From an uncultured Actinomycetota bacterium (GTDB lineage: Bacteria; Actinomycetota; Actinomycetes; Mycobacteriales; SCTD01): a stretch of DNA of 64,000 nucleotides. The notes under the pieces were generated by a model. It was given only the letters and a program-made list of their open reading frames with translations. It was not told where the DNA came from and did not search any database. Below are positions 1-22,387 of this stretch, in pieces; within the stretch, counting starts at the first letter, position 1, and every line of letters begins with the position of its first letter. The translations under genes and the position numbers were made by a program. The stretch spans positions 135,870 through 199,869 of the forward strand of contig CAWFHF010000006.1 of the NCBI GenBank assembly GCA_963815615.1. The letters are read 5' to 3'.

Positions 1-1298
1 GCTCCTCGCGGTGCTGCCGCGGGCCGGCCCGCCGGGCGGCACCTCGTGCTGCTCGTCCTGGTGGTCGTGCTCTACTCGTCCGCCGGGCATCTACCGCAGC
101 CGGCTCGGCGCTGTCGGCCCTGGACGACCTGCCGGCGCTCGTCGGGCCGCGCGCTGGCCGCGGCCGCCGTCGCCGCCAGCGCTCGCCCTGCTCGTCGACC
201 CGACGCTCGCGGGCGCCGGCCTGCTCGGCGACGGCCGCTGCTGCTGGCGGTGCTCGTCGTGCGTGCTGCGCGGCCTCGGCCTACGCGGTCGTCCGCCGGT
301 TCCGCGGCGCGCGGCTGGGTCGCCCACCCCACGCTGGTGCTGGGCGCCGGTCGGGTCGGCGGGCAGGTCGCGACGCTGCTGCATGGACCACCCGGCGTAC
401 GGGCTGCGCGCCCGTCGGCTTCCTCGACGACGACCCCCTGCTCGCCGCGCGAGCGAGCGGCCGGTGCCCGCTGCTCGGCGGGCCACGGTCGACCTCGCCG
501 CGGTCATCGTGGAGTTCGGCGTCCGCGACGTCATCGTCGCCTTCGGGTCGATGCCGGAGTCGCAGATGGTCGACGTCATCCGCACCTGCGACCGGCTGGA
601 CGTCGAGATCTTCTTCGTGCCGCGGCTGTTCGAGCTGCACCACACGCAGCCGCGACATGGACCAGGTGTGGGGCCTGCCGCTGGTGCGGCTGCGCCGGGC
701 GGCCTTCCGCATCGCCCGCCTGGCGGCTCAAGCGGCTGCTGGACGTCGTCGTCTCCGCGGTCGCGCTGGTCGTCCTGGCGCCCGCTGCTGGCCGCTGATC
801 GCGCTCGCGGTGCGGCTCGAGGGCGGCCCGGGCGTGCTCTTCCGCCAGGAGCGGGTCGGGCTGGACGGCCGGCCGTTCGACGGTGCTGAAGTTCCGCTCG
901 CTGCGCCCGGTCGACGACGCCGAGTCGCAGACCGAGTGGAACATCGCGCACGACGACCGGCTCGGGCCCGGTCGGGCGGTTCCTGCGCCGGACCCGCCTG
1001 GACGAGCTGCCGCAGCTGTGGAACATCCTGCGCGGCGACATGACGCTGGTCGGCCCGCGCCCGGAGCGGCCGCACTTCGTCGAGCCAGTTCGCGCGCGAC
1101 GTTCCCGCGCTACACCGCGCGGCACCGGGTGCCCGCCGGGCTGACCGGCTGGGCGCAGGTGCACGGGCTGCGCGGCGACACCTCCATCGAGGACCGGGCC
1201 CGCTTCGACAACTACTACATCGAGAACTGGTCGCTCTGGCTCGACGTCAAGATCATGCTGCGGACGGTGACCGCGGTGCTGCGCCGCACCGGGCCTGA
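1..1298 (+). pseudogene. Initiating polyprenyl-phosphate sugar phosphotransferase (bacterial sugar transferase, WbaP/EpsB-like); 5' end off-window; at least 6 frame breaks
   Basis: Family motifs are split over all three + frames. VDLAAVIVEFGVRDVIVAFG..FFVPRLFEL is in ORF 11..889, RLKRLLDVVVSAVALVVLAP in 46..798, and [26 protein letters not shown] in 657..1043. [16 protein letters not shown] and [45 protein letters not shown] are in 883..1731. [26 protein letters not shown] was read by eye at about 980-1075. TGA 1296-1298 is reached after one more shift. Confidence 0.85.
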
Positions 1299-1311
1299 GC
1301 TGCAGCTCAGG
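1294..1311. terminator. Perfect 18-bp palindrome CCTGAGCTGCAGCTCAGG containing the stop codons of both convergent genes; candidate bidirectional terminator
   Basis: Read directly. TGA at 1296-1298 on + and TCA (=TGA) at 1307-1309 on -. No U-tract. Confidence 0.35.
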
Positions 1312-3245
1312 GAGCGGCACGGGCTCGTACCAGAACCTGCGCACGGCGGCGGCTCGACCGCCCGCGGCCAGCCGCCCCGTGCCGGGCCGGCATCGACGTC
1401 CGACGCACGCCGCGTCGAGCGGCGACCGCCCCGTCAGCGGCTGCGGTGTCCGGGCGGCGCGACAGCTCGGGCGCCGTCCGGCCGGCCGACGCGCACGTCG
1501 AGGCCGGCGTCGACGGCGAGCGGCTGGGGCACGAGCGCGAGCGCGGTAGCGGCCGTCCGACCAGCGGCAGCCGGTAGCGCAGGGTCCAGCTCGACCGTCG
1601 TCGCCGGGCGGCAGGGAGACGACGTCGGTGAGCACGCGGTGGTCGCCCTCGGGGCAGGGGCTCGCGCCACCGCCGCTGCCGGTCACGCCGGAACACCGGT
1701 CCGTCGGCCCGCGCGGGCAGGGCCAGCGTGACGAGGTTGAGCGATGGTCCCCGGGTCGCACTCGCCGGCGACGTAGAGCGGCAGGCCCGCGCCGGCGCCG
1801 TGTTGCGCAGCTGCACCGCCTGGGTGACGTCCGCGGTGCGCGTCGTCCAGCACGGCCGTCACCTGGACGAGCCGGCGCGCCGTAGTAGTCGAGCTTGTTG
1901 CCCTCGCCGTCCCCGCCGCCGAGGTTGTGCACGGCCACGGCGCCGAGGTCGCCCGCCCCGGGGCCGACCGCGCCCGGCGAGCCCGGCATCGACCCAGGGC
2001 GGCCTGCTCTGCGGGTCGCGCCGACCACAGCGCCAGGTGCGGCCCGCGCGCCGGCTTCGCGCCAGGGCCGGGCGCCAGCCGGGTGACGTCGGGGCTGCCT
2101 CAGCAGCCGCTCCACGACGGTGTCGGCCGCGGCCGCAGCGCCTGCCCGGCGCAGGCCCTGGCTGCGCGCGTCGTCGCCGGCTCCCGCGTAGGCGTCCGAG
2201 AGCAGCGCTCGACGGCGGTCGTCCCGGCGAGCACGGTCCCGTCGGGCAGGCTCGCCGGTGCCGTGGCGCCGAGGACGGCGGCGATGGCCCGCATGTCGAG
2301 CCAGATGACGCGTCCCGCGGGCGGCAGGCTCACCGCGGCCACCGCGGCGAGCACCTGCGACCAGGTCGGGACGTCCGGCGTCATGTTGACGTTCTTCCAC
2401 AGCGTCGTGTCGGCGAGGAAGGGCGCCCCAGAGGCGCTCGGTAGTCGGGCGGGGCGGGACGCGCCGCGCGCGGCCGGGCTCCGTCGGCGACGTCCTCGAC
2501 GTCGCGGAACGCCTGCAGCTCCACGGCGCCGCGCGGGCGTCGGCCTCGGCGAAGACGTCACCAGGCCGCCCGTGCCCCGCAGCTCGGCGTTGTTCTGCAG
2601 CAGGACGAGCAGCGGCGCTCGCCGTCGCCGCCGGCCAGCCCGCGCAGCGCCAGCACCGCGTGCGCGGCCTCGCGCAGCTGCCGCGGCACGCCGTCCACCT
2701 GCGCCCTCGCGTCGCGCACCCCCCTCCGCCAGCACGCGCGGCACCAGCGTCGTGGGGGCGTCGGCCAGCTCGCTGACCGGGGACTGCGTGCGGTCGGCGG
2801 CCCGGCGCAGGGCCCTGCTCACCCGTTCGAGCCCGGCGGGGTCCAGCCGGCCGTCCTGCACGACGGGGTCGCCGTCCTGCAGGGCGTCCAGGACGTCGCC
2901 GCCGGCGACGGCGACGGCGAGCGCGGCGGCGGTCGCCCGCCGGGCGGTGTCGTCCGGGGTGCGGCCCAGCAGGGGGACGCGGGCGGCGAGCGCCGGACCG
3001 GGGGCGGAGAGGCGGGCGTCGGCCCGGCGCAGGGCGCGCTGCGCGGTCGTCAGGTCCCGGCGGGCGTCGTCGAGGCCCTCGGCGGTGGACGCCCGGCGCA
3101 GCGCCGCCTCCGCGTCGGCCAGGTCGCCGCGCGCACGGAGCAGGGCCAGCGCCGCCCAGACCAGGGCGACCAGCAGCACGACAGCGCCGACGGCGAGCCC
3201 CCGACGCAGGACCAGCCGGGCGGATCGCACAGCGGAGTGTGTCAC
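1307..3245 (-). pseudogene. DUF4012-domain membrane protein (polysaccharide-locus associated), several frame breaks
   Basis: TM helix LAVGAVVLLVALVWAALALL, then hallmark LLVLLQNNAELRGTGGL and FLADTTLWKNVNMTPDVPTW, all in ORF 2100..3638. Later pieces ALLSDAYAGAGDD and AVHNLGGGDGEGNKLDYY lie in the 91..4272 frame; [15 protein letters not shown] lies in 1307..1816. The GTG start at 3245 is a guess and could be as far up as 3638. Confidence 0.7.
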
Positions 3246-3547
3246 CGGGCCGGCCCGCACAGCAGCGCGCCGCCCCGACCGGTGGTCGAGGCGGCGCGCA
3301 GGAGCGGTGGGCGGGAGGGTCAGCGCCCTGCCAGGCGGGTCCGGGGGCGGGTCGTCGTGGCCCACGCTCTTGGCGCGACGGGCGCCTGTGGTGACCACGG
3401 CCTTGCGGACGGGCGTCAGCCGGCTGGTCGCCTTGGTGGTGGGGGACGGACCGGGTCCGCGGCGCTGGCCGGCCGGGGCCGCGGCGCTCACCGTCGCCGG
3501 CGCGGCGACCGGGCCGATGAAGGGTGCCGTCGTCGTGGTGCCCGCGG

Positions 3548-4883
3548 TCACGACGGCCCGGGGGCAGCGGGGGCGGCGGCTGCGGGGGCAGCGGGGGTGG
3601 CGGCAGGGGGTGGTGGCGGTGGTGGCGGGTGCGGCCACCCGGGCGGCGGTCGTGGCAGCGGCAGCCAGGGGGGCGGGGCGGCGGCCCGGGGCAGCGACCG
3701 GGCCGCTGACGACGGGAGGCGGCGGCGGGGGCAGCGGCGGCCGGAGCAGCGGCAGCGGGAGCAGCGGCGACGGGAGCGGCGGCAGCGGGAGCAGCAGCGG
3801 CGGGAGCGACGCTCACGGGAGCGGCGGCCGGAGCGGTGGTGACCGGGGCAGCGACGGCGCGGTCGGGGGTGACCGGGGTGGTGGCCGCGGGAGCGGTGCC
3901 GAAGTGCGCCTTGTAGGCGGCGGCGGCCTTCGGGAAGTTGCTCAGCAGGTGGTCGCCGTCCTGGGCCGTGACGTTGAAGTAGGTCTCGTACAGCACGTGG
4001 TGGGAAGTCCACCCACCCGCAGGAAGTTCGTGATGAACAGCGGGTTGTCGCCGCCGCCGCCGCCGTTCTGGCCGGACGTCTCCCACAGGCCCCACTCGGG
4101 GAAGCCGAAGGGCTTGTCGCCGTGGCGCGCGGCGAAGTCCGCCCACCAGTCCAGCCCGTAGGTGCCGCCCTGCACGGCCGCCCAGCGCTGAGCCGGCGTG
4201 GCGGTGCTGTTGCCCCAGAGGCTGTCGTAGACGTCCAGGCCGATGACGTCGACGTACGCGTCGCCCGGCCACGCCGCGTTGGGCTTGGCCCCCCAGCTGC
4301 CCGCGCCGAGGGTGGGGTTGTACTCGAAGGAGAAGCGGGCGCCGGGGACCGCGCGCATGGTGGTGACGATGCGGCGGAAGTAGGCGGCGAACTCGGCCTC
4401 GTGGCCGATGATGCTCCAGGGGAACCAGTCGCCGTTCATCTCCCAGCCGAGCCGCAGGACGGCGTCGTCGTGGCCGGCGGCCACGAGGTTGCGGCCGAGC
4501 GCGGCGAAGTGCTGGTCGTAGCTGCCGGCGATGCCGGCGGCGAACGTGGTGCTGCCCTTGGCGCCCGGCAGGACCGGCACACCGAGCACCAGGCGGTCCA
4601 CCTTTCCGGCCGAGGCTCCGAGCAGCCAGCCCGGCCCCTGCACGCCGGCCCAGTCGTCGCCGGGGAGGAAGTCGCCGGCCACGGGGACGGCCTGGCCGCG
4701 CCAGGCGCCGAAGGACTGCGCCTGGCTGACCTTCACGCCGCCGGAGTAGACGCCGGACAGGGCGCGGTCGGCGGTGGCGGCCGAGGCCGGCGCGGCGGCG
4801 CCGACGAGCCCCCCGACGAGGCCGACCGTGAGGCCGAGGGCGGCAGCAGCACGCGCGAGCAGGCGGGGGCGAGCAGCAGACAT
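3548..4883 (-). pseudogene. Secreted GH26-like glycoside hydrolase (paralogue 1) with Pro/Ala-rich C-terminal tail; frame break near 4010
   Basis: ORF 3942..4883 has signal peptide MSAARPRLLARAAAALGLTVGLVGGLVGAAAPASA, then LRLGWEMNGDWFPW and FGFPEWGLWE. The C-terminus WTSHHVLYETYFNV..KAAAAYKAHFG plus the (PAAAA)n tail continues in the 91..4272 frame. The 3' end is uncertain. Confidence 0.75.
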
Positions 4884-5091
4884 GGGGGTCCTGACCCTTC
4901 CGGGGAACTCAGGGTCCCGACCGGTTTCGGATGCCTGGCGGGGTCCCGAGGGACCTCCATAGCTCTGCGTCCCCGCCTCACGACGGGTTTGCCATTGTCG
5001 ACCGGTCCTGCTGGTGGGTGTTCCTTGCTACTGACTGGGTTGGGCCGAAGCGGACATCACTGACTACTCCCATCGGGTGACCAGGCCGCGG

Positions 5092-6574
5092 TCACGCTCC
5101 GCTCACGCGCCGGTCGAGCTCCCACCGCTGGACTACGACGCCGCGCAGGACCTGCTCCGAAGCCAGCCGGTGGGCCCGGCCCAGCGCGTCCAGCACGGCG
5201 GTCACGTCCGGGTCGGCCTCGCCGTAGAGGCCGACGTGGCTCACCACGAGGTGGACGACCGGGGCGTCGCGGACGGCAGCCGCGACGTCGTCCTCGGGCA
5301 GCGGCACGTAGAAGAACAGGTCGGCGAGGTCGGCGCCCCACGGAACAGCGCCGGGAGCGCGGGGCGGCGCCGGCGGAGGTGGCGCGGCGTAGCGCGCGAA
5401 CGGCAGCCGGACGTACGGGGCCACGAACAGGACGCGGTCGGCAGGGCCCGCCCCGGCGGTCACCGCGGCCACGGCCCCGGGCCAGTCCTCGTCCTGGGTG
5501 CGCACGTACGCCAGGCCTGCCAGCAGGCCGAGGACGACGCCTGCGGCGGTCAGGGGGACCAGGGCACGTCGCCAGGGCAGCCGGTCCAGCACCGCCGCGA
5601 GGGCCAGCACGGCAGGAGGGACGCAGACCACGAGGTAGCGGGGGGCCAGCACCGGCTGCTTCAGCGCGGAGACGGCGACGGCCAGGGCGACGGGGACGAG
5701 CAGCCAGCACGTCACCAGCACCGCGGGCCAGTGCTCGGGAGCCGCCCGCAGGGGCAGGGGACGACCCTGGGCCCGCCGGCGCAGCGCCAGTGCCGCGACG
5801 ACGGTCAGGCCGAGGACGGCGACCACCGGGGCCCCCACCAGGAGGGCGCGCGCGAAGGGGGAGCCGTCGAGGTAGCCGACGCCGCTGGCGGCCTCGTCGG
5901 TCATCAGCCGGGGCAGCCCGGAGACCACGCCGACGTACAGCACCGCCGCGGGGGCGACATGGCGCGCCCCGCACCCCCGTGCCGCGCACGAGCAGCACGG
6001 CGCAGGCGTGGGACGGCGTCATCAGCAGCGCGAAGTAGTGCGCGTACACCTGCGACGCCGGCGACCAGCGCGTACGCGATGAAGGCGGCGGCCGTCGGGC
6101 GGCGGACGGCGCGGTCGAGCAGCAGCCCGGAGGCCACCGCCAGCGCCAGCAGCAGGGCGTAGCTGCGGGCCTCCACCGCGTGGGGCACCGTGACGGGGTT
6201 GCTGACGAGCAGGAGCGGCGCCACGAGGGCCGCTCGGCGGGGCAGCAGCCGTGCGGCCAGCACCGCGAGCAGGGCGACGGCGACGGCAGTGGCCGGCGGG
6301 GAGAACACGCAGGCCGAGGTCGCCGTCGGCGAGGTGCCGCCATCCGCGCAGGAGCACGGTGTGGAGCAGCCCGTTGCCCTCCCGGTCGAGCAGCACGCGG
6401 CGGAACGACGGCGCCGGCAGGCCGGCCAGGGTCGCGCTGGCCGCCTCGTCCAGCCACAGGGGCCGACGGCCCGCGAGGCCGGCCAGCGAGCAGGAGCAGG
6501 GCCGCGCAGAGACCGAGCACGGCGCGGGGCAGCGCCGGGGTGCCGGGGAGCGCCGTACCGGTGCGTGCGGTCAC
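5092..6574 (-). pseudogene. Polytopic membrane glycosyl/mannosyltransferase, GT39/ArnT-like (GT-C); at least 3 frame breaks
   Basis: N-terminus VTARTGTALPG..AVLGLCAALLLLAG is in ORF 5057..6697 and LLDREGNGLLHTVLLRGW in 6022..6396. TM block VFSPPATAVAVALLAVLAARLL..VEARSYALLLALAVASGLLLDR is in 5904..7931, QVYAHYFALLMTP in 5057..6697, and the intact C-terminal 283 aa in 5092..5943. The GTG at 6574 forms a GTGA overlap. Confidence 0.65.
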
Positions 6575-7972
6575 CTGGTCGCGCGGGCCCGCTTCTCGCG
6601 CGCGGGAGCGCGGGGCGCGCCCGTCCGTGCGGGGCGGCAGCGGCGCGCGCTTCTGGGGTGCCGCGGACGGGACCGGGGTGTCGGCGTCGTAGTACACATC
6701 CTCCTCGCCGCCGGCCCAGCTTGACCCGGGTCAGGACCACCCCGACGACGACGACGTCCGCCGCGCGCAGGCGCGCCACCGCCTTCTCGAGCTCGGCGAC
6801 GTCCAGGCGACGGGCGTCGGCCACGAGCAGGGTGCGCTCCGCCAGGGTGAGGACGCGCAGGGTCTCGGCGACGGACTCCAGGGGGGCGTGTCGACGAGGG
6901 CGAAGGCCTTGCGCGTCCTGGCGGCGGCGAGGGCGCGCGGCAGGGCGGCGTCGAGAACCTCGAGCGGGTGCCGGTCGGGCACGCCCGCGCTCAGCAGCCT
7001 CAGCGTGGGCTCGTCCGTGCGCTGCAGCAGCCCCGCCGGCTCGAGGACGGCCGCCTCCGCGAGGCCCGGGGTCAGGGCCGCCTCGAACTGCGTGTGCTGC
7101 GTGGGACGGCGCAGGTCGGCGTCGACCAGGACCACCTGCTGGCCGGCGACGGCCAGGGCCTGCACGAGGGCGGCGCTGAGCGAGGACTTCCCCTCGCTGG
7201 CGTGCACGCGAGGTGACGGCCAACGACTGGTCGGCGCCGGTGGCCCCCGCGCCCTCGAGGCCGATGCGCACCCGCTGCAGCGCCTCGACGAAGCGGGTGT
7301 CCGCCTGGTTGCGCAGCGTGGTCCCGCGACCCAGGCGCAGGCGCGGCAGCTCGCCGAGGACGGGGACGCCGGTGCGGCTGGGCACCACGTCGGCCAGCTC
7401 GGCCCGCGTGGACAGGGCACGGGCGAGCAGCGCCGCCGCGAGCCCGGCGAGGGCGGACAGGACGAGGCCGCCGAGCAGCGCGCGGCGGCACGGGGAGGGC
7501 CCGACGGCACGGTGGGCGTCACGGCGTCGTCGAGCACGGTCAGGCGCAGGCCGGCCAGGTCCCGCGCCTGCTTCACGCGCAGGGCGAACGAGGCGGCGTT
7601 CGCGAAGCGCGCCGCGGCGTCCTGCCGGGCCGAGGTCGCGGTGATGGTGAGCAGTCCCGTGCCGGGCTCGGCGCGCGCCTCGATCTCCACGTCGGCGTCC
7701 GCGAGGTCCGAGGGCAGCGAGCCGCGGACGAGCGCGTCGTTGGCCTCGCTCGTGGCGTAGGCCGCCAGGGTGGGCACGAGCACCGAGACGGCGGACGAGT
7801 AGCTGGCGACGTCGGTGGCGTCGGCAGGCTTGGCGATGACCGTGGCGGTGGCGGTGTACCGGTCGGCGGGCAGTGCGGCCGCCGCGACGGCCAGCAGCAG
7901 GACCAGCGTGCTCGCCAGCAGCGCCGCCCAACGGTGACGCCGCAGGGCGGAGAGCAGGTCGTCCAGAGTCAC
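6571..7972 (-). pseudogene. Polysaccharide chain-length determinant (Wzz) fused to BY-type tyrosine kinase; at least 3 frame breaks
   Basis: VTLDDLLSALRRHRWAALLASTLVLLLAV (Wzz N-terminus). Walker A is SEGKSSLSAALVQALA, Walker A' is VVLVDADLRRP and Walker B is FALVDTPP, all in ORF 6731..8431. The second TM and LAVTS, then LRVLTLAERTLLVADARRLDVAEL..VVGVVLTRV, lie in 5904..7931. An acidic YY tail (EEDVYYDADT) is present. The GTG at 7972 overlaps the wzy stop (GTGA). The 3' end is inferred. Confidence 0.75.
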
Positions 7973-9379
7973 GTGCGTCCCTCGGTCTGGGTCCGGGCTC
8001 CCGGGCGGGCCGCGGAGGTGCTGTCCGAGGAGTCTTCGGCAGCCAGGGCGCTGTCCGGGTCGAGCGCCAGCGCGAGTCCGGCGAGGAGCCCGAGCAGGAC
8101 GGCCAGCCGGTACTTCTCCAGCAGCGACTCCACCATGCCCTTGGTGACCCAGGCCAGGAGGCCGGCGGTGACGGCGGCGGCCAGCCCCACCAGGGCGGCC
8201 GAGGAGGGGCGCCGGAGGCGGCCGGCGCAGGCCAGGCAGGTGCTCGTCAGGGCCGCGCCGAACAGCAGGACCCCGACCAGCCCGGTCCGCAGCAGGAGGT
8301 CTCCGGCCACGTTGTGGGTGAGTCCCGAGCTGATGAACTCGCGGGGCCCCGGCTCGTAGTAGTCGTACCGGTAGCCCAGCCCGTGACCCTGCAGCGGTGC
8401 CTCCGCGAGCAGTGGGCGCACCTCGCGCCACTGGTTGAGGCGGCCCTGCGCGGCAGCTGCTTGCCCCGGCTGTCGATCGCCTCGCTGACGCTCGCCACGA
8501 GGGGGAGGTCGTCCGGCGCCTCGCCGGCGAGCGTCGCCACCAGCGTGGGCACGGTGAACAGCGTGGCCGTGACGAGCAGGACGATCACGACGTCGCCCCC
8601 GCGGGGCAGGACGGCGCTGCCGCCGCGGACCAGCAGGACGGCGGCCACCAGCAGCCCGGCGAGCATGCCGAGCAGGGCGGCGCGCTGGCCGGCTGCCGTC
8701 GGCGTCAGGAGCAGGGCGACGGCCGCCACGAGCATCGCCGTCCGGCCGCTGCCCGCCGTGAGGGCGCGGACCAGCGCCACCAGGCCGAGCGACGCCGCGG
8801 CGGTGGCCAGGTCCGCCCCGATGCCGCCGGTGTCCAGCAGCGGCAGGAGCGGCACGGCGGCGTCGGTGAGCAGGCCGGCCTGGCTGGTCACGAGCAGCAG
8901 CCCCGCACCGGCGCCGGACCAGAGCAGGAAGCGGTCCAGGACCCGCTGCCCCACTCGGAGGGGCGCACGCCGGAGGCCACGCAGAGCACGCCCAGGTAGG
9001 CCACGGCCTTGCCCTGGTAGACGATCTCGGTGGGGTCGTTGCCGACGAGGACGCCGCGCACGCCGGCGGCGGCGTACCAGACGAGGAAGGCCGCCCAGCA
9101 CAGCGCGGGCACCGACATCGAGGTGGGCATCCCGCGCCCCACGACCCGGGCGGCGAGCGCGGCCAGGACGACGACGTCGAGCAGGCGGAAGTTCGTCGCG
9201 CCGAGGTCGGGGTGGAACAGGCCGGCGGGCACCGTGTTCGGGTCGGGCCAGACGGCCGAGTCGACCAGCACCGTGCCGAGCACCCACAGCACGACGCCGA
9301 GGGTGCGGCCGGTGCGCTCGAGGTGGACGAAGCGCAGGAACAGCCCGAGCGCGAGGGCGAGCGCCAGAGCGGCGGCCAC
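7969..9379 (-). pseudogene. wzy: O-antigen ligase/polymerase family membrane protein (Wzy-like); 2 frame breaks
   Basis: The N-terminal TM region is ORF 8888..9379 and the middle TM block is in 8247..10316. The C-terminus, with QGHGLGYRYDYY..SSGLTHNVAGDLLLRTGLVGVLLF, is in 7969..10215. Confidence 0.7.
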
Positions 9380-9465
9380 GCTGCACCCCCCTGCGACCCG
9401 GCACGGCGGCGCCGCGACGGGGCGAGCGTACGGCCGGCCCGGGGCGTCCGCGGCGTTGTGGCACC

Positions 9466-10673
9466 GTGCGTCCGGTGACCCGTCGACCTGCCCAGCGCGC
9501 TGCGGCCGCCGCCCAGCTGCTGCTGTGGCCGGGCCTGGTGCACCTGGCCGCGGTCACGGTGGCGGGCGCGCTGCCGACGCCGCCGCCGCCGAGGCCGGGG
9601 CGCGGCGGGACGCTGCGCCTGGTCGTCGTGGTGCCGGCGCACGACGAGCAGGAGGGGCTGCCAGCGACACTGCGCTCCCTCGCCGCGGCGGCGCCCACGC
9701 GGGGCGGCACCTCCGTGCTCGTCGTCGCCGACCACTGCACCGACGGCACCGCCGACGTCGCCCGGGCGGCCGGCGTCCGGGTGCTGGAGCGCGACGGGGG
9801 GTCGGGCGGCGGCAAGGGCGCGGCCCTGGCCGAGGCCTTCGCGCTGCTGCTCGACGGGCCGGAGCCGCCGGACGCCGTCGCGGTGGTCGACGCCGACACC
9901 GAGGTCGACCACGGCTTCTGGCTCCTGGCCGAGCAGCGCCTGCTGGCGGGCGCCGACGTGGTCCAGGGGCGGTACCTGGCCGCGGAGCCCGTGCGGCGCA
10001 CGGTGGTGGCCTCGCTGGCGCAGGCGGCCGCGGCGTGCCAGTCCGTCCTGCGCCCGCGCGGGCGGGCGCGGCTGGGGGCGGCCGCGAAGCTGCAGGGCAA
10101 CGGCATGGTCTTCACCGCCGAGGTCCTGCGCGAGGTGCCGTGGGAGGCGTTCGGCGTCGCGGAGGACGTCGAGCACTGGTTCCGGCTGCTCCGTGCGGGG
10201 GTCCGCCCGGTGCACGAGCCGTCGGCGGGGGTGCGGGGCGCGATGCCCGAGGACCTCGCGGCCGCCCGGGTGCAGCGCACGCGGTGGGAGCAGGGTCGGG
10301 CGGCGGTGTCGCGCACCCCGCGCGCTCCGGGCTCGTCCAGGCCGCGCGCACCCGCGACCCCGTGCTGGCCGAGGCCGTCCTGTCCGAGCTCGTCCTGCCG
10401 CCGCTGGCCCTGCTCGGCGCGTGGGCGGCCGGTGCGGGCGCCGTGAGGGTGGTGTCAGCCGTTCCCGGCGGCCGACGCCGTGCGGCTCGGACGGCGTCCG
10501 TCCAGCTGGGGGTGCTCGCCGTGCACGTCCTGACGGCGCTGCGCGTCGCCGGTGCCCCGCCCCGCGACTACGCCGCCCTGGTCGCCGCCCCCGCCGTGGT
10601 CGGGTGGAAGGTGCTGGTCAAGGTGCGCTCGGTGGTGCGCCCCTCGACGGGGTGGGACCGCACGCCGCGCTGA
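9466..10673 (+). pseudogene. Family 2 glycosyltransferase with C-terminal TM segments; one frame break near 10310
   Basis: LRLVVVVPAHDEQEGL..VLVVADHCTDGT..AVAVVDADT..QGNGMVF..QRTRWEQG is in ORF 7873..10446. The TM tail ending at 10673 is in ORF 9030..10673. Start is GTG 9466 or 9475. Confidence 0.8.
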
Positions 10674-10674
10674 C

Positions 10675-11733
10675 TCAGCCCCCGTCCGCGACCTCGGCGT
10701 GGACCGCCCGCACCCCGGCCACCATCGCCCCGGGGCTGAACAGGGAGAGCGCGCGGGCGCGGCCGGCAGCACCGAGCCGGGCCCGGCGCTCCGGGTCGTC
10801 GAGCAGCGCGGCCAGCGCCGCGTGCAGCGCTCCAGCGTCCTCCGGCGGCACGAGGACCCCCGTGTCGCCGAGCACCTCGGGCAGCCCGTCGACGTCGCTG
10901 GCCACCACGGGCACCCCCGCGTGCATGGCCTCGACGGCGACCAGCCCGAAGGCCTCGAACCGGCTCGGGACAGCCAGGACGTCGAACGCCCCGACCAGGG
11001 CGGCGGCGTCGTCGCGCGGCCCGAGCAGCTCCAGGCCCCCGGCGCGGGCCAACGGTCCGTGGAGCGGTCCGTCGCCCACGACGACCACCCGGGCCTGCGG
11101 GTGCGTCCCGCGCAGCAGGCGGCCGGCCTCGGCCAGGACCTCCCAGCCCTTCTGCTCGCGCAGCCGCCCCACGCCGCCGACCACCAGGGCGTCCGGCGGC
11201 AGCCCGAGGCGGGCGCGGGGGTCCGGGTCGAGGGGGACGGGGTCGAGGCCGTTGTGCACGACGGACGTGCGCGCCCCGGCCGCCCGGGCGTGCCTCCCGA
11301 CCGCCTCGGAGACCGCGACGACCCGGTCGGCCTGCCGCAGGACGAGCCCGGACAGCCGCTCCCGCCACGCCGCGGTCCCCGGGATGGCGTTGTGCAGGAC
11401 GGCGACGACCGGCACGCCCAGACCCCGCACGGCCGCCACCAGCACCAGGCCGTCGCCCTGGTCGGTGAGGTTCAGGTGCACCACGTCGGGGCGGGAGGCC
11501 CGCACCGCCCGCCGGACGGCAAGCGCCGCTGCCGGCGAGGGGCGCCGGGCCAGCCCCGGCACGGCGACGACCGGACCGAACGGCGCCAGGCGGCCCGCGA
11601 CCTGCGGGTCGGCCTGCTCGGGGAGCACGATCGCGACCTCGTCCCCGGCTGCGGTCATGCCCTGCAGCAGGACCTCGAGGGCCCGCTCCGCCCCGGCGAA
11701 CAGCACGGCGTCGAGCAGGACGGCGACCCTCAC
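10675..11733 (-). CDS. Family 4 (GT-B) glycosyltransferase
   Basis: ORF 10675..11838 contains VGGVGRLREQKG..FDVLAVPSRFEAFGLVAVEAMHAGVPVVASDVDGLPEV. The GTG at 11733 overlaps the upstream stop (GTGA). Confidence 0.85.
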   Translation of the reverse strand: MRVAVLLDAVLFAGAERALEVLLQGMTAAGDEVAIVLPEQADPQVAGRLAPFGPVVAVPGLARRPSPAAALAVRRAVRASRPDVVHLNLTDQGDGLVLVAAVRGLGVPVVAVLHNAIPGTAAWRERLSGLVLRQADRVVAVSEAVGRHARAAGARTSVVHNGLDPVPLDPDPRARLGLPPDALVVGGVGRLREQKGWEVLAEAGRLLRGTHPQARVVVVGDGPLHGPLARAGGLELLGPRDDAAALVGAFDVLAVPSRFEAFGLVAVEAMHAGVPVVASDVDGLPEVLGDTGVLVPPEDAGALHAALAALLDDPERRARLGAAGRARALSLFSPGAMVAGVRAVHAEVADGG

Positions 11734-12872
11734 CCGGCGCTCCCGCGGTCGATCTTCGGCCAGAGCGCGCCGCTGTCGGAGGACCGGAGCCAGCGCCAGG
11801 TGCCGCCCACGCCCACGGCCTGCAGGAACGCGACCCACCCGGCTGCCGCCAGCGGCCCGGGCAGGACCGCACCGCGGGCGGTCGCGACCGCCGCGCCGGC
11901 AGCAGCGGCGTTGCCCGCGACGAAGAGCGCGGCCGGCACCCGACCGGCGCCCGGGCGGACGGCGCGCTGCGCGGCCAGCACCAGGAGCGCGGCGTGCGCC
12001 AGCGGACCGGCGCTCACGCGCACCAGCCGGTGACCCCAGAGCTGCGCCGCGACGACGTCAGCGCGCAGCAGGGCGCGCCGACGCTCGGCGAGCACGCTGA
12101 GCATCCCGGCGACGACGCGGGTCCGGCGCTCCCACTCCTCGCGCGCGGTCGGGCTGGCGTCCTCGAAGGCCCGCGCCTGCGGCTCGTAGGCGACGCGCAG
12201 CCCCTGCTCCAGGACGTCGAGGGCGATCCAGAGGTCGTCGACGGGCACGTGCGCCGGCACGTCGCGCCAGACCGAGCGCCGGACGGCGGCGACCTCGCCG
12301 ACGAGGCCCACCGTGCCCCCCAGGCGGTCCTCGCACCGCTTGAGCCAGGACTCGAAGCGCCAGTAGGCGCCCTGCCCGCCGCCCCGCACCGCCTTCTCGC
12401 CGGCCACCGCACCGACGTGCGGGTCGGCGAACCAGCGCGCCAGCGCGGCGAGGGCTCCCTGCTCGAGCTCGGTGTTGGCGTCGGTGAGCACGACGACGTC
12501 GCCGGTGGCCGCGGCCACGCCGTGCCCGAGCGCCGCGGACTTGCCTCGCCGCGCCGCCGACGCGACCACGACCGCTCCGGCGGCGCGGGCCGCCTCCGCG
12601 GTCGCAGGGTCGTCCGCGACGACGACGACCTCGAGCGGACCGGGGTAGCCGTTGCCGAGGGTGTCCGCGACCTTGCCGGCGATGACGTCGGCCTCGAGGT
12701 AGGCGGCCACGACCACGCTGACGGCCGGCCAGTCCGCGTCGTCGGGGGGCGCGAGCGCGGGCCTCCGTCGGGCGGCCAGCGTCAGCGCGACGGGGTACAG
12801 CACGGGCCCCGCGGCGGCGACGGCCAGCAGCCCGGCGACGGCGGCCCGCTCCGCGGGACGGGTGCTGCTCAT
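11730..12872 (-). CDS. Family 2 glycosyltransferase, membrane-anchored
   Basis: Intact 380-aa ORF with VSVVVAAYLEADVIAGKV..VVVVADD..VVVLTDANT..EEWERRTR plus flanking TM helices. Confidence 0.85.
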   Translation of the reverse strand: MSSTRPAERAAVAGLLAVAAAGPVLYPVALTLAARRRPALAPPDDADWPAVSVVVAAYLEADVIAGKVADTLGNGYPGPLEVVVVADDPATAEAARAAGAVVVASAARRGKSAALGHGVAAATGDVVVLTDANTELEQGALAALARWFADPHVGAVAGEKAVRGGGQGAYWRFESWLKRCEDRLGGTVGLVGEVAAVRRSVWRDVPAHVPVDDLWIALDVLEQGLRVAYEPQARAFEDASPTAREEWERRTRVVAGMLSVLAERRRALLRADVVAAQLWGHRLVRVSAGPLAHAALLVLAAQRAVRPGAGRVPAALFVAGNAAAAGAAVATARGAVLPGPLAAAGWVAFLQAVGVGGTWRWLRSSDSGALWPKIDRGSAG

Positions 12873-12903
12873 GCGGCAGAGCCTGGCGCACGGTCCGCGG
12901 GGC

Positions 12904-14055
12904 TCACGCGCCCCCGTCCCGCAGGCGGGGGCCGAACAGCTCCCGGTAGGCCGCGCCGGCCTCGGGGAAGCGCGAGTCCTCGCAGCGCAGGCAGTGGTCG
13001 AGGCTCTCGGTGGTGGTGTCGAAGTAGGACGCGTAGGCGTAGGGGCGGTCCTGCAGCCAGTCCGCGACCCGCCGGACGAAGGCGGCGTCGTCGCCCCCGC
13101 CGTTGTCGCTGCCCTGCAGCCGCAGGAGCAGACCCCACTCCGGCAGGCTCATCGCCTTGCCGTGCGCCGCCGCGAACCCCTCCTGCCAGCGGAGCCCGTA
13201 CCCGGTGCCACCCCCGTCGACCAGGCCGTCGAGCTGGTACTGCCAGCGGCGCTCCTCGTCCCAGTCGAGCCTGTCGGAGGGCCCGGCGTCGTACAGGTCC
13301 AGGCCGACCAGGTCGACGACGTCGTCGCCCGGCCAGGCGGCGGCGGGGTCGCCGGCGGTCGAGCGCTCGTCCTGCAGCAGCAGCCCCCAGTCGACGACGA
13401 AGTGCTGGCCGCGGGCCCCGCGCAGGGCGCGCACGGCGCTCGCGAAGGCCTCGGCGTAGAGGCCGGCCTTGCGGTCGACGGTGTAGCCGTCCTCCGGCTC
13501 GCCGTAGGACCAGGGGAAGGTCGTGGTGTTCGGCTCCCAGCCGATCCGCAGCACGGCGTCGGACTGCCCGGCCTCGACGAGGCGCCGGCCCAGCGCGGCG
13601 AAGTACCGGTCGTGGTCGCCGTCGGCGCCGGCCGCGAGCAGCTCGCCGTTCCCGCCCGCCTCGACCGCCCGCCCGTCGATCGCCGTGGGCAGCAGCGGCA
13701 CGCCGTAGACCACACGCAGGCCGGTGCCCTCCCACCGCTGGAGCGGGTAGCCGGACGACGCGGCGACGGTCGACCAGTCGTCGGCCGACAGGAAGTCGCT
13801 CACGAGGCGGACGTCGGCACCGCCGCCGACCCACTGCTCGAACGCCCGGACGGCGTCGGGGTCGCCCGCCCCCACGTACACGCCCGTGCCGGGCAGGTCC
13901 TCCAGGGCCGCCCCGGTGCTGCCGATGCCGACAGCGCGGAGGCCGACGACGGCCACCGCCGCGACCAGGAGCACCGCCAGAGCCACGAGGCGGGGTCGCC
14001 GAGCGCTCCGGCGGCGCGGAGCAGGCACCGGGAGGGGGTCGGACGACATGCGCAC
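12904..14055 (-). CDS. Secreted GH26-like glycoside hydrolase (paralogue 2)
   Basis: Intact 383-aa ORF with an N-terminal TM/signal anchor, then LRIGWEPNTTTFPW and MSLPEWGLLL. It is colinear with the 3548..4883 gene. Confidence 0.8.
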   Translation of the reverse strand: MRMSSDPLPVPAPRRRSARRPRLVALAVLLVAAVAVVGLRAVGIGSTGAALEDLPGTGVYVGAGDPDAVRAFEQWVGGGADVRLVSDFLSADDWSTVAASSGYPLQRWEGTGLRVVYGVPLLPTAIDGRAVEAGGNGELLAAGADGDHDRYFAALGRRLVEAGQSDAVLRIGWEPNTTTFPWSYGEPEDGYTVDRKAGLYAEAFASAVRALRGARGQHFVVDWGLLLQDERSTAGDPAAAWPGDDVVDLVGLDLYDAGPSDRLDWDEERRWQYQLDGLVDGGGTGYGLRWQEGFAAAHGKAMSLPEWGLLLRLQGSDNGGGDDAAFVRRVADWLQDRPYAYASYFDTTTESLDHCLRCEDSRFPEAGAAYRELFGPRLRDGGA

Positions 14056-14161
14056 AGTGTCGTCGTCGCGCGCCCCTCGTGCCGGGGCTGCCTCCGCCGG
14101 TGCTCCGCCTACGCTGAGCGGGTCGAGGTGTGACCCTGCGTGGTCGGAGCGGCGAGGAGCG

Positions 14162-15679
14162 ATGGCGACGCTGCCGGCGGGCTACGGCCGCAGCACGATC
14201 AGCAACTACGTCACGACGCTGACGAGCATCGTCGTGGCGCTGGTGACGGTGCCCCTGCTCACGCGCGGCCTCGGGCAGGAGGCCTACGGCGTCTGGGTGC
14301 TGGTGGGCGCCACCGTGCTCTACCTCGAGCTGCTGGAGTTCGGCTTCGGCGCCACGACGATCCAGTACGTCTCGGCCGCCCGGGCGCGCGGCGACGACCC
14401 GGGCGTGCGCACCGCGGTCGCGACGTCGTTCTGGCTGCTGGCCGTCCCGGGCGCGGTCGCCCTCGTGCTCGCCCTGGTGCTGGCCGCCGTGTTCCCGCGC
14501 CTGTTCGACGTCGCGCCGGAGCTGGTCGGCCCCACGCGGGTGCTGCTGGTGCTGCTCGCCGTCGACCTCGCGGTCTCCATCCCGAGCGACTGCTTCGGCG
14601 GCACGCTCATCGCCCTGCAGCGCTACGACCTGCTCAACGCCACCCTCGTCTCGGTAGCGGTCCTCCAGGCCGTGGGCTGGGCCGTCGTGATCGCCGCCGG
14701 GGGCGGTCTCGTCGAGCTCGGGATCGTCACCGTGGCCCTGGGCCTCGGCGGCCAGCTGGCCCGCTACCTGCTGTGCCTGCGGCTGCTGCCCGGGCTGTCG
14801 CTGCGCCGGCAGCACGTGTCCCGCGACCTCGTGCGCCCCTACGCCGGGACCTCCGTCTGGTTCGCCCTGTCCGAGATCAGCACCGTGGTCATCGCCCGCA
14901 TCGACACGATCGTGGTCGGGGCCGTCGTCGGTGTCGCCGAGGCGGGCGTGTACGCCGTGGGGCAGAAGCTGGCGCTGCTGGCCGCCCGTGCGTCGAGCCC
15001 GGCCATCGCGGTCCTGTTCCCCCACGGCGCCGCCCTGGCCGCCGCCGACGACGACGAGGGCCTGCGCCGCGGCGCCCTGCTCGGGACCAGGATCTCGGCC
15101 GGCGTCGCGCTCCCGCTCGCGCTCGTGCTCGGCGTGCTGGCCGGTCCCGCCGTCGACGTCTGGGTCGGCCCGGCCTTCGGGGACGCCGCGACGGTGGTCC
15201 TGCTGCTCACTGCCGGCACCGCGGTCGCCGCGGTCGGAGGGGCCGCCCGCACCCTGGTGCTCGGCACCAGCGGTGTGCGGGGCGTCGCTCTCGTGGAGAC
15301 CGGCGAGGCCGCCCTGAACCTCGTTCTCAGCGTGCTGCTCGGCCTGCGCTTCGGGCTGGTCGGCGTGGCCGCCGCGACCCTGGTGGCCGGGGTCCTGAGC
15401 ACCGTGCTCGGCATCGTCCCCTACGCCTGCCACCGCCTCGGGCTGCACCAGCTGGCCCTGTACGTCCTGGTCGTGCGCGGGCACCTGCTGCCGGCCGCCG
15501 TGACCGGGGGCGCGGCCGCGGCGCTGCTCCAGCACGCCGCGCTCGACCGGCTGCTGCCGCTCCTCGCCGCCGGTGCCGGCCTGGGCGCCCTCTACCTGCT
15601 CGTCCTGGCAGCGACCGGCCTGGCCCCCGACGAGCGGGCCCGGGTGCGCGAGCGCGTGCGCCTGCGCGGCGCCGCATGA
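14162..15679 (+). CDS. wzx: Polysaccharide flippase (Wzx, MOP/PST superfamily)
   Basis: ATG at 14162 within ORF 13886..15679. About 505 aa with 12-14 TM helices and an N-terminus (ISNYVTTLTSIVVALVTVPLLTRGLGQEAYGVW) typical of PST flippases. Confidence 0.85.
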   Translation: MATLPAGYGRSTISNYVTTLTSIVVALVTVPLLTRGLGQEAYGVWVLVGATVLYLELLEFGFGATTIQYVSAARARGDDPGVRTAVATSFWLLAVPGAVALVLALVLAAVFPRLFDVAPELVGPTRVLLVLLAVDLAVSIPSDCFGGTLIALQRYDLLNATLVSVAVLQAVGWAVVIAAGGGLVELGIVTVALGLGGQLARYLLCLRLLPGLSLRRQHVSRDLVRPYAGTSVWFALSEISTVVIARIDTIVVGAVVGVAEAGVYAVGQKLALLAARASSPAIAVLFPHGAALAAADDDEGLRRGALLGTRISAGVALPLALVLGVLAGPAVDVWVGPAFGDAATVVLLLTAGTAVAAVGGAARTLVLGTSGVRGVALVETGEAALNLVLSVLLGLRFGLVGVAAATLVAGVLSTVLGIVPYACHRLGLHQLALYVLVVRGHLLPAAVTGGAAAALLQHAALDRLLPLLAAGAGLGALYLLVLAATGLAPDERARVRERVRLRGAA

Positions 15680-17874: not shown

Positions 17875-18620
17875 GCCATCGCCTGCCGCAGGGTCCACGT
17901 GCCGTGCGGCCCGTAGGTGAGCTGGTCGAGCTGCTCGCGGTAGGGCTGCAACGCGGCGAGCTTGGCGTCGAGCTGCTCCTCGCCGAGGCCCACGACCTGG
18001 TGGGGCAGGCCCCGTGGCAGCCGGAGCTTCGCGAGCGCGGAGGACCACTGGGTGGCCATGTCGTCGCGACGGCGGCGGAGCACATGGCGGGTCCACGCGT
18101 ACGGGAAGCGGGGCGTTCCGCCGCCCTCCACCCAGGCGGGCCAGCCCCAGCCGCAGGCGTACGGCTGGTCGGCGAACACGCGCACCCGCGGCGGGGCGGG
18201 CGAGCCCTCGACGGCCTGCAGGGCCGCGCGGGCGGTGAGCCGGTGGTCCACGTGCAGGCCCAGGCCGACCGGGATCCAGACCTCCTCGCTCTCCCGCAGG
18301 ACGGGTCGCAGCTGCTCGGTCAGGGCCGCGAGGGTGCCGCCGTCGCCCGCGCTGCGGTCGCGGTAGTCGACGTCGAGGTGGTCGAGGTGGACGGCGCGGG
18401 CGCCGCACGCGGCCAGGGCGCGCACGTCGGCGTCCCGGCGCGCGAGGGCGGCGTCGGCGGGGTCGGAGTAGCCGCACCGGGCGTCCCAGGCCGCCACCGG
18501 CCGGCCGCGCTCGGGCACGCCGGCGAAGCAGGTCACGGCCTGCGCCTCGGGGGCGGCCGTGAGCACGGACCAGACGCTGAGCACGGCGTCGTCCAGGTGC
18601 GGTGACACCACGGTCAGCAC
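17817..18620 (-). CDS. PIG-L/LmbE family deacetylase
   Basis: Intact 267-aa ORF containing VVSPHLDDAVLS and HVDH. Its 3' end overlaps the convergent GT gene by 58 nt. Confidence 0.85.
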   Translation of the reverse strand: MLTVVSPHLDDAVLSVWSVLTAAPEAQAVTCFAGVPERGRPVAAWDARCGYSDPADAALARRDADVRALAACGARAVHLDHLDVDYRDRSAGDGGTLAALTEQLRPVLRESEEVWIPVGLGLHVDHRLTARAALQAVEGSPAPPRVRVFADQPYACGWGWPAWVEGGGTPRFPYAWTRHVLRRRRDDMATQWSSALAKLRLPRGLPHQVVGLGEEQLDAKLAALQPYREQLDQLTYGPHGTWTLRQAMAYEAWWVLRDPSSPRNSWS

Positions 18621-18640
18621 GTCGGGTGCTCCTCTCTCCA

Positions 18641-18680
18641 GGTGGTCAGGACGGGCTCCAGGTGGTCAGGACGGGCTCCA
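18641..18680. repeat. Perfect 20-bp tandem duplication GGTGGTCAGGACGGGCTCCA x2 (followed by a partial GGGTCAGGGG)
   Basis: Read directly in the 81-bp spacer between the kinase-like gene stop (18702) and the PIG-L start (18620). Confidence 0.9.
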
Positions 18681-18701
18681 GGGTCAGGGGGCGCCCGGTG
18701 G

Positions 18702-20090: not shown

Positions 20091-20149
20091 CTCGTGATCC
20101 TCGCGCACCGGGGCAAGGCGGCAGGCGCTCCGCCCCGTAGCGTGCACCC

Positions 20150-21184
20150 GTGCGCGTCCTCGTCACCGGCTCCGGCGGCTACCTCGGCGCGGTGCTGGTC
20201 CCCCTCCTGCGGGCCGGGGGCCACGAGGTCGTCGGGCTCGACAGCGGGCTGTTCGACGCCTGCTCGCTCGGGCCCGACGTCGGCCAGGCCGAGGTCGGCG
20301 TCGACGTGCGCGACGTGACCGCCGCGCACCTGGACGGGGTCGACGCCGTCGTGCACCTGGCCGCTCTGTCCAACGACCCCCTGGGCGACCTGGCGCCGGA
20401 GACGACGCACGACGTGAACCACCTGGCCACCACCCGCCTGGCCCGGCTGGCCCGCGAGAGCGGCGTCCGCCGTTTCGTCTACTCCTCCACCTGCAGCGTC
20501 TACGGCGCCACCGGCGGCGACGCGCTCGTCGACGAGGACGCCCCGCTCGCGCCCGTCACGCCCTACGCGGTGAGCAAGGTCCGGGCCGAGCGCGACCTGC
20601 ACGCCCTCGGGACCGACGCCTTCACCACGGTGGCGCTGCGCAACGCCACCGTGCACGGCCTGTCGCCCCGGCTGCGCGCGGACGTCGTCGTCAACGACCT
20701 CGTGGCGTCAGCCGTCCTGACCGGCACCGTGAAGGTGCTCTCGGACGGCACTCCCTGGCGGCCGCTGGTGCACGTCGACGACGTCTGCGCGGCCTTCGCC
20801 GCGGTGCTCGAGGCGCCGCACGAGCGGGTCCACGGGAAGAGCCTCAACGTCGTCCGCCCCGAGGAGAACCACCGGGTGAGCGACGTCGCCGAGCTGGTGG
20901 CCGAGGCCGTGCCCGGCACGCGGGTGGAGATCACCGGCGAGCGCGGCGGCGATCCCCGCTCCTACCGCGTCGACCCGTCCCGCTTCCTCGACGCCGTCCC
21001 CGCCTGGCGCCCGACGTGGACCGTGGCGAGCGGCGCCGCCCAGCTCGCCGGGGCCTACGCACGGCTCGGCCTGACCGAGGTCGACGCCCGCACCCGCCTG
21101 GTGCGGCTGCGCTGGCTGGCCCACCTGCAGCAGTCGGGCCTGGTGGGCGCCGACCTGCGCTGGGCGGGCGCTCAGCGGCCGTAG
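20150..21184 (+). CDS. NAD-dependent epimerase/dehydratase (extended SDR)
   Basis: Intact 344-aa ORF with VLVTGSGGYLG, SSTCSVYG and YAVSK (YxxxK). Confidence 0.9.
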   Translation: MRVLVTGSGGYLGAVLVPLLRAGGHEVVGLDSGLFDACSLGPDVGQAEVGVDVRDVTAAHLDGVDAVVHLAALSNDPLGDLAPETTHDVNHLATTRLARLARESGVRRFVYSSTCSVYGATGGDALVDEDAPLAPVTPYAVSKVRAERDLHALGTDAFTTVALRNATVHGLSPRLRADVVVNDLVASAVLTGTVKVLSDGTPWRPLVHVDDVCAAFAAVLEAPHERVHGKSLNVVRPEENHRVSDVAELVAEAVPGTRVEITGERGGDPRSYRVDPSRFLDAVPAWRPTWTVASGAAQLAGAYARLGLTEVDARTRLVRLRWLAHLQQSGLVGADLRWAGAQRP

Positions 21185-22320: not shown

Positions 22321-22387
22321 CTGTTCCTCGTCCTCCGGTCGGGGTCCTCGGACTGTCTCTCGGGAGGTCCGGGCCGGACCTGGAGGG

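Follow-up and report, generated by a model that had tools for sequence, protein, structure and literature searches.

Phase variation classically acts on glycan loci, and strain-variable glycan islands are frequent assembly break points. In decaying bacterial genes, substitutions far outnumber indels, and Mira, Ochman, and Moran reportedly found in 2001 that the decay of bacterial pseudogenes is deletion-biased and covers a broad range of sizes. Frameshifts can also originate in the assembly itself: frameshift-free long-read assemblies need ~40-fold coverage, indel frameshifts being a known failure at low coverage (PMC9262707), and uncorrected PacBio-type reads are insertion-biased, with ~8% insertions versus 3% deletions (bioRxiv 10.1101/2021.08.23.457338).

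Here, we analyze 64 kb (64,000 nucleotides; hereafter, ‘the window’) of a public contig from an uncultured Actinomycetota bacterium, in which the genes of a polysaccharide locus are interrupted by many frame breaks. These breaks are already present in the deposited 559,052-bp contig (NCBI, ENA): the truncated 313-aa product of a GH26 gene, with its out-of-frame tail, is an exact entry for the public contig (P0225), the deposit’s call for a DUF4012 protein is a 483-aa fragment (P0244), and 12 other proteins of the window match the 559,052-bp contig exactly. We conclude that the breaks are very likely indel errors that became fixed in the consensus of the deposited assembly, and not mutations in the organism.

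Distribution of frame breaks along the window

Break coordinates were obtained in a first pass by Viterbi segmentation on codon usage, independent of an earlier first-pass annotation of this DNA, and breaks were placed with a purpose-written frameshift-aware protein-to-DNA alignment against intact orthologues. Plain tblastn was unsuited to this placement because its gapped extension crossed out-of-frame sequence. Segmentation and frameshift-aware alignments both bear out the annotation’s claim that breaks are packed into the first 10 kb. The segmentation reproduces the break coordinates given there, with its own placements at 649, 724, 778, 880, 964, 1084, 1309, 4012, 8452, 8953, and 10294. 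By alignment, all seven genes in 1–10.3 kb are disrupted (7/7, ~56 breaks), just as had been stated for every gene of this interval; frame changes are present in the orthologue alignments, and the break calls stand. The number of breaks listed earlier was too low, the true number being about three times larger. Most dense-zone breaks fall in two genes, an initiating sugar transferase (~21) and a DUF4012 gene (20).

The dense zone exists but is not flat across 10 kb, since density decays from window position 1, with 21, 13, 8, 0, 2, 3, 4, 2, 2, 0, and 1 breaks in successive kb, followed by 0 breaks over 13 kb. At a uniform rate (70 breaks/64 kb), 3.0 breaks would be expected in 1–2730, where 42 were seen (P = 3.5e-33). 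The hyper-dense block (1–2726) holds ~42 breaks, i.e., 15 per kb with a mean spacing of 66 nt, and ends abruptly: 2727–3215 is event-free, which has a probability of 0.0006 at the rate of the block. Expressed as an indel error rate, this amounts to ~1.5% over the initial 2.7 kb, ~0.18% from there to 10.3 kb, 0 in the next 13 kb, and ~0.04% in later patches.

The initiating sugar transferase (CoA_binding_3 + Bac_transf; 1–1293, plus strand), which the window edge truncates near residue 55–60, carries ~18–21 frameshifts, with consensus break positions at 21, 85, 107, 144, 181, 230, 240, 262, 278, 306, 382, 410, 454, 467, 493, 647, 711, 781, 794, 882, 964, and 1083. The frame-corrected protein is 80% identical to an intact 481-aa homologue (P0001) over 420 residues, and its stitched fragments match positions 1–178 of the 179-position Bac_transf Pfam model (216 bits). 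The DUF4012 protein (1312–3215, minus strand), which may have a Pro/Ala-rich N-terminal extension up to ~3800, contains 20 frameshifts, all in 1357–2726 and none in 2727–3215. After frame correction, it is 54% identical over 615 residues to its orthologue in a related locus (L001), and it matches positions 1–144 of 144 in the DUF4012 Pfam model across five junctions.

The five remaining genes of the dense zone have fewer breaks. The GH26-family hydrolase (3679–4883, minus strand, ATG start at 4883; 61% identity to the orthologue in a second related locus, L013) carries a +1 break at each of 4019 and 4009, and the PMT_2/GT39-like membrane glycosyltransferase (5119–6477, minus strand) has three to five, at 6303, 6050, 5968, and, less certainly, 5388 and 5344. 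In the Wzz/BY-kinase-like co-polymerase (6581–7972, minus strand), alignments to two separate orthologues agree on breaks at 7482, 7208, 6879, and 6701. The Wzy_C polymerase (8008–9379, minus strand) is broken at 8943 and 8452, and the GT2 glycosyltransferase (9481–10670, plus strand) has a single break of −1 nt at 10331, the last of the dense zone.

The first-pass annotation had confined the clustered breaks to one glycan locus, a view that does not hold, as the clean zone (10675–23437) belongs to the same locus. Its description of 10.7–23.4 kb as intact is correct: 10–11 uninterrupted genes lie there, in the order GT4, GT2, GH26-like, Polysacc_synt flippase, double GT4, PIG-L, APH-like, epimerase, DegT aminotransferase, and GT2, each with a stop codon no more than 52 nt from the end of the coding signal and a full-length Pfam or orthologue match. 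The only independent contig found for the same species (L015, run ERR11523665), whose overlap covers the clean zone only, aligns to 18727–22396 with 12 mismatches and 0 gaps in 3,670 bp (99.67% identity). To look for another assembly that includes the dense zone, the frame-corrected DUF4012 protein was used as a query; it matched only the deposit’s own fragment, other relatives having at most 59% identity. The GT4 protein at the boundary, compared with GTDB representative genomes, gave no close relative (best match, 47%). Set against the remainder of the window, the break-free run of 13 kb stands out only marginally (P(0) = 0.01–0.03), and the intervals 37.2–48.5 kb and 52–64 kb are just as clean.

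Some 15 more breaks are scattered over 23–52 kb. Those named by the annotation were verified, except for the one claimed in the 59.8-kb secreted protein, for which verification failed. Three lie in the rfbF-like nucleotidyltransferase (23386–24237, minus strand) at ~23854, 23653, and 23479, where the NTP_transferase model spans the junctions, and another in an M10-like protease. In the liv-type ABC transporter genes (27313–31095, plus strand), livH is broken at 27829 and 28177, livM at 28456, and the substrate-binding protein at 30463, with an ambiguous junction at 29152. Abhydrolase_11, ideR, sigH, and galE (34363–37809) have one break each, at 34549, 35359, ~35940 (the sigH N-terminus), and 37111, respectively; for sigH, the in-frame sequence ahead of the conserved N-terminus contains a stop but lacks a start codon. 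Likely single breaks affect the N-terminus of DUF3311 (~48520), the N-terminus of bioB (50881), and a His-rich lipoprotein (51892), all on the minus strand in 48319–52740. Independent contigs across these scattered breaks were sought via the clusters of nine flanking intact genes, eight of which are singletons (8/9); the ninth, RshA, belongs to a 463-member cluster with close homologues from other contigs. An alternation of error-bearing and clean blocks at ~13 kb, as from single reads of differing quality, was considered and dropped, given the likely break at ~48.5 kb.

Coding signal and indel type in the broken genes

We see no relaxation of selection in the affected genes. Across ~3,200 frame-corrected codons, not one in-frame stop occurs, and the GC3 of the corrected genes, 0.93–0.98, is the same as that of the clean genes (0.983 for the transferase). 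In a neighbor-joining (NJ) tree, the terminal branch of the corrected transferase measures 0.0895 versus a median of 0.1045 for 42 intact homologues (rank 28/43). Identity to the syntenic L013 genome is 52–61% for the broken genes and 54.5–61.9% for the intact GT4, GT2a, and flippase, and more than 100 orthologues are free of interruption. Programmed ribosomal frameshifting, which uses one, rarely two, conserved sites per gene, was rejected in view of the uninterrupted orthologues and of a single gene with as many as 21 sites.

All breaks are 1–2 nt in size, with no longer indel, and the alignments are collinear across every junction, where the same protein continues without loss of residues. 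Insertions exceed deletions in the whole set of breaks and number ~21 versus 0–1 in the transferase. Homopolymers are not enriched near the breaks: the mean longest run is 2.71 versus 2.78 at random positions, and runs of at least five are found at 5% of breaks versus 6% of random positions. The homopolymer location expected of consensus errors is, in other words, not observed. No simple-sequence repeat was found at the break sites. A link to local GC was tested and rejected, as was the idea that the dense block is marked by a depletion of homopolymers of at least five, since their density of 0.5 per kb in 1–2000 lies within the range of other 2-kb intervals. In the transferase, runs of exactly four are rare.

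Origin of the breaks

The artefact reading, raised in the first-pass annotation, gains strong support from the combination of 0 stops, preserved GC3, lack of excess divergence, breaks of 1–2 nt with an insertion bias, and damage to ideR, sigH, galE, bioB, and livHM. The break distribution tracks position, not gene function: the boundary between the dense and clean zones falls inside one glycan locus, and unrelated housekeeping genes are also broken. In the proposed mechanism, the consensus in part of this contig, which comes from a very GC-rich (77%) Frankiales-like actinobacterium, would rest on reads that were too scarce or disagreed, and single extra or missing bases would have outlasted polishing in the poorly supported part. 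The decay from position 1 over about one long-read length could reflect read depth ramping toward the end of a contig, and a poorly supported patch would produce the same decay pattern. We infer the depth ramp, the contig-end position, and the long-read-type platform; a single end-of-contig ramp cannot cover all breaks, as the patches at 23–37 kb and 48–52 kb are far from the start. Because the breaks are almost certainly single-base consensus errors, the glycan genes of the dense zone are probably intact in the organism.

A related possibility, which we regard as unlikely, is that the artefact stems from a hypervariable glycan island in which at least two diverged strain haplotypes were collapsed and mixed by the polisher into spurious insertions; the pile-up of breaks would then mark real microdiversity and not low depth. 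Consistent with this idea, public data include another strain of this species (99.67% identity, 12 SNPs in 3.7 kb), L001 and L013 differ by rearrangements of the locus, as in a flexible island, and insertion-only errors outside homopolymers fit a consensus graph that takes bases from two haplotypes. However, the equally strain-specific part with GT4, GT2, and the flippase is error-free, distant housekeeping genes are also broken, and a depth ramp accounts for the smooth decay away from the window edge better than a boundary between haplotypes would.

It is highly improbable that the indels are real and that the organism carries true pseudogenes in a polysaccharide locus that has only recently been inactivated. 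Seven adjacent genes of one pathway are indeed all broken, the breaks stand in the deposited record, and they are uncontradicted in the dense zone, given that the independent contig overlaps the clean zone only. Nevertheless, neutral decay, in which bacterial genes gain many more substitutions than indels, cannot yield 21 indels in 1.3 kb without excess amino-acid change, without stops, and with a GC3 of 0.983. The events are all 1–2 nt and mostly insertions, where a deletion bias and a broad range of sizes would be expected; one half of this locus remains intact; and ideR, sigH, galE, bioB, and livHM would have to be dead too. More improbable still are truly genomic insertions, either in genes expressed via recoding or from targeted insertion mutagenesis at one end of the locus without substitutions; real breaks would be extraordinary, but nothing here supports them.

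The least credible proposal is that the breaks are functional and switch capsule or EPS production as phase-variable contingency sites, programmed frameshifting, or transcriptional slippage: although glycan loci are the classic targets mentioned above, the sites show neither homopolymer enrichment nor simple-sequence repeats, there are up to 21 per gene versus one tract per gene in switching systems, and the same type of break occurs in unrelated genes, so that phase-variable or programmed switching is effectively refuted. The suggestion in the first-pass annotation that the locus might be inactivated or switch-prone is likewise not supported, with breaks outside repeats, ~20 of them in one gene, and a glycan locus that is intact from 10.7 to ~25 kb.

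Consensus error, the preferred reading, means that the break pattern is in all likelihood not a real feature of the organism, and the record calls for a quality warning. The public 559-kb contig holds a stretch with ~1.5% indel error, and the errors make a complete polysaccharide locus, together with ideR, sigH, galE, and bioB, look like pseudogenes. Pseudogene counts, inferences of capsule or EPS loss, and model training on this record would all be misled, and the locus is due for frame correction or re-polishing before use.

Comparison with known systems

The Pfam set of the locus (Bac_transf, Wzy_C, Polysacc_synt, Wzz + CbiA, GT2, and GT4) is that of a Wzx/Wzy-dependent system, and the locus underneath the breaks is an ordinary Wzx/Wzy-type polysaccharide locus that is probably fully functional. 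It shares its gene set (priming transferase, DUF4012, GH26, PMT_2, Wzz/BY-kinase, Wzy, GT2, GT4, and flippase) with Frankiales/Geodermatophilaceae-like Wzx/Wzy loci, namely L013 (GCA_016650445.1) and L001. The L013 locus is largely syntenic with that of the window, apart from small inversions, with an identity of only 52–62%. Unlike the window genes, the L013 and L001 orthologues are uninterrupted.

Phase-variable capsule and LPS loci, which switch by slipped-strand mispairing, share with the window frameshifts in glycan-synthesis genes, but here the breaks have no repeat tracts and there are many per gene. True bacterial pseudogenes have in common with it that several adjacent genes of one pathway are frameshifted; in contrast to them, the window has no stops, no excess of substitutions, and no multi-base or deletion-biased indels, and it keeps its codon bias. 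The frameshifts of long-read (nanopore/PacBio) assemblies, like those seen here, consist of single-base errors, leave gene fragments with perfect family matches, and affect housekeeping genes; a rate that depends on local depth would be a further shared trait. The contig itself (559 kb, deposited in ENA and NCBI) resembles long-read MAG contigs of relatives. Classic nanopore errors concentrate in homopolymers, whereas the present breaks do not, and the insertion bias of the first 1.3 kb resembles uncorrected PacBio-type errors.

Reading-frame breaks in the first 10.3 kb

The window is 77% G+C, and plain open reading frames (ORFs) are uninformative because nearly every frame is open. Genes were therefore delineated with a codon-usage model, trained on 16 long, strongly GC3-biased ORFs, and a Viterbi segmentation into seven states (six frames and non-coding). 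Between 1 and 10.3 kb, this segmentation split the sequence into short pieces on the same strand, 30-1,086 nt long (median ~220 nt), with breaks, i.e., reading-frame shifts by small indels, at 649, 724, 778, 880, 964, 1084, 1309, 4012, 8452, 8953, and 10294, almost exactly where the first-pass annotation had put them. Since plain tblastn extended through out-of-frame sequence, breaks were placed with a purpose-written protein-to-DNA dynamic programme that allows explicit frameshift moves.

When the segments are joined gene by gene, Pfam models match straight over the junctions. Bac_transf aligns over positions 1-178 of 179 in the stitched sugar transferase (216 bits), DUF4012 over 1-144 of 144, and Wzy_C, Wzz with CbiA, PMT_2, GH26, and GT2 are similarly recovered. 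Intact 480-aa orthologues in Frankiales and Geodermatophilaceae-like genomes share 82% identity with the stitched transferase. Frameshift-aware alignment to ten orthologues places 17-21 events at consistent positions in this gene (1-1293) and is collinear over every junction (80% identity, 420 residues). Nearly all events add one extra base, with at most one deletion, and the few '+2' calls become two close +1 events when other orthologues are used.

Against L001, a relative's locus with uninterrupted orthologues, the DUF4012 gene has 20 events, all within 1357-2726. The remaining genes were aligned to L013, a largely syntenic locus in a Frankiaceae MAG (GCA_016650445.1), which places breaks at 4019 and 4009 in GH26; at 6303, 6050, and 5968 in PMT_2, with 5388 and 5344 less certain; at 7482, 7208, 6879, and 6701 in Wzz/BY-kinase; at 8943 and 8452 in Wzy; and at 10331 in GT2. 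Hence, all seven genes in 1-10.3 kb are broken, as the first-pass annotation had claimed, and the orthologue alignments it proposed uphold its break calls. The region holds ~56 breaks rather than the dozen or so listed there. Between 3559 and 3828, GC-rich tandem arrays (repeat units of 15, 30, and 45 nt, and a CGG-like array with a 3-nt period) code for Ala/Pro-rich linkers at the GH26 C-terminus and in the DUF4012 N-terminal extension, where frameshifts are not assessable by homology.

The breaks are also present in the public record. Exact protein matches (n = 14) place the window on one 559,052-bp contig in NCBI and ENA, and include the truncated 313-aa GH26 product with its out-of-frame tail; a homology search identified the 483-aa DUF4012 fragment as another gene call on this contig. 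Because truncated products are among the public gene calls, the breaks were already in the sequence as deposited rather than arising afterwards. Outside the window, a contig of equal length (559,052 bp) encodes an intact 476-aa sugar transferase (P0020), 73-77% identical to the broken one, so the genome probably carries another priming transferase or an additional polysaccharide locus.

Distribution of breaks along the window

Break density is highest at the window start, with 42 breaks in 1-2730 (15.4 per kb; P = 3.5e-33 against a uniform rate), followed by 14 in 2731-10331 (1.8 per kb) and none in 10332-23385. Counts in successive kb are 21, 13, 8, 0, 2, 3, 4, 2, 2, 0, and 1, the fourth kb being partly low-complexity and not assessable. 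Beyond the empty 13 kb, which are only mildly unusual against the background that follows (P = 0.01-0.03), there are 12 breaks in 23386-37200 (13.8 kb; 0.87 per kb) and about three in 37201-64000 (about 0.1 per kb), all between 48.5 and 51.9 kb. Outside the first 10.3 kb, breaks are thus patchy, with none for ~11 kb after the group of 12 and none in the final 12 kb, which suggests local variation of assembly support along the whole contig.

Genes in 10.7-23.4 kb are intact, in agreement with the first reading. Each occupies a single segment of ~0.8-2.2 kb, reaches an in-frame stop within 52 nt, and has a full-length Pfam match or a single-HSP orthologue match. Their order is GT4, GT2, GH26-like, Polysacc_synt flippase, double GT4, PIG-L, APH-like, epimerase, DegT aminotransferase, and GT2. 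The gene content here is still that of a glycan locus, so broken and intact genes meet inside one locus.

Past 23.4 kb, runs of same-strand segments were stitched, and Pfam coordinates with stop and start positions separated frameshifts from gene boundaries. The scattered breaks of the first-pass annotation, apart from that in the 59.8-kb secreted protein, were borne out in the rfbF-like gene (three), livH (two), an M10-like protease, livM, a substrate-binding protein, Abhydrolase_11, and ideR, as well as in sigH, galE, the DUF3311 N-terminus, bioB, and a His-rich lipoprotein; the sigH frame, for instance, contains a stop but lacks a start codon ahead of its conserved N-terminus. The remaining frame changes are ordinary gene boundaries.

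Owing to the galE frameshift at ~37111, a 616-codon ORF (36847-38697) begins at the start codon of this gene and crosses out-of-frame sequence into a same-frame downstream MOSC-domain gene, called separately in the deposit (P0287). At the livM/ABC-ATPase junction (29152), the livM frame has no stop for 303 nt beyond the start of the ATPase coding signal, and only one ABC_tran domain was found in the liv operon; this could be a further frameshift or an unusual gene arrangement. The lipoprotein (51736-52740) adjoins bioD, bioB, and a bioF-like gene, has no Pfam match, shows a high content of His, Ala, Glu, and Gly with repeats such as HGSTGSTGSTGSTGHGSTG and AAEGEH, and has one likely frameshift at 51892.

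Consensus error versus inactivation

The breaks could reflect consensus indel errors or a polysaccharide locus that is truly inactivated or switch-prone. Phase variation is removed by the sequence context of the breaks, which shows no simple repeats and no homopolymer enrichment (mean longest run within 6 nt of 2.71 versus 2.78 at random positions). The homopolymer location that the first reading asked to be checked was thus not found, and the breaks are not classic homopolymer errors; local GC is not enriched either. Within the transferase (1-1293), runs of exactly 4 are scarce, at 1.5 per kb versus 5-15 in other 2-kb windows and ~10 in the L001 orthologue, and runs of at least 5 are likewise few. 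The scarcity of exactly-4 runs may be a signature left by the way the consensus was built.

Real pseudogene decay in bacteria is deletion-biased, with varied indel sizes and many more substitutions than indels. Here, all events are 1-2 nt and insertions predominate (~21 versus 0-1 deletions in the transferase). The corrected transferase has a neighbor-joining terminal branch of 0.0895, versus a median of 0.1045 for 42 intact homologues, and a root-to-tip distance below their mean. Frame-corrected genes have a GC3 of 0.93-0.98, no in-frame stop in ~3,200 codons, and a codon signature indistinguishable from that of clean genes. Similarly, identity to L013 is 52-61% for the broken genes and 54.5-61.9% for the intact GT4, GT2a, and flippase. 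Inactivation and switching thus find no support in decay, codon usage, indel spectrum, or sequence context, and the artefact reading is strongly supported.

Origin of the breaks

The breaks are most likely consensus indel errors that persist in an assembly of long-read type. They are no biological feature, and the genes beneath them form a polysaccharide cluster of the ordinary Wzx/Wzy type. Such error would be densest where read support is thinnest, and the monotonic decay seen over ~10 kb from the window edge is what would be expected if read depth ramped up from a contig end. Strain-variable glycan islands are common breakpoints of assemblies, and a transferase cut at position 1 would fit a contig end, though it would equally follow from a window boundary inside the gene. 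A consensus from collapsed strain haplotypes is a variant of the artefact explanation, from which only reads would separate it.

The window epimerase clusters with a protein on an independent Logan contig (L015, run ERR11523665), positions 1-3670 of which match 18727-22396 of the window (99.67% identity; 12 mismatches, zero gaps). Thus, a near-identical strain exists in a second public dataset, relative to which this part of the clean zone is indel-free. Homology and cluster look-ups found no independent sequence covering the dense zone or adjoining the scattered breaks; run ERR11523665 could serve to re-check the dense zone.

Published work supports the general mechanism. Indels in nanopore assemblies lead to frameshifted gene calls below ~40-fold coverage (PMC9262707); related soil MAGs in ENA/NCBI are nanopore-only, built with Flye and one Medaka round (PMC12313526); and uncorrected PacBio-type reads are insertion-biased (bioRxiv 10.1101/2021.08.23.457338).
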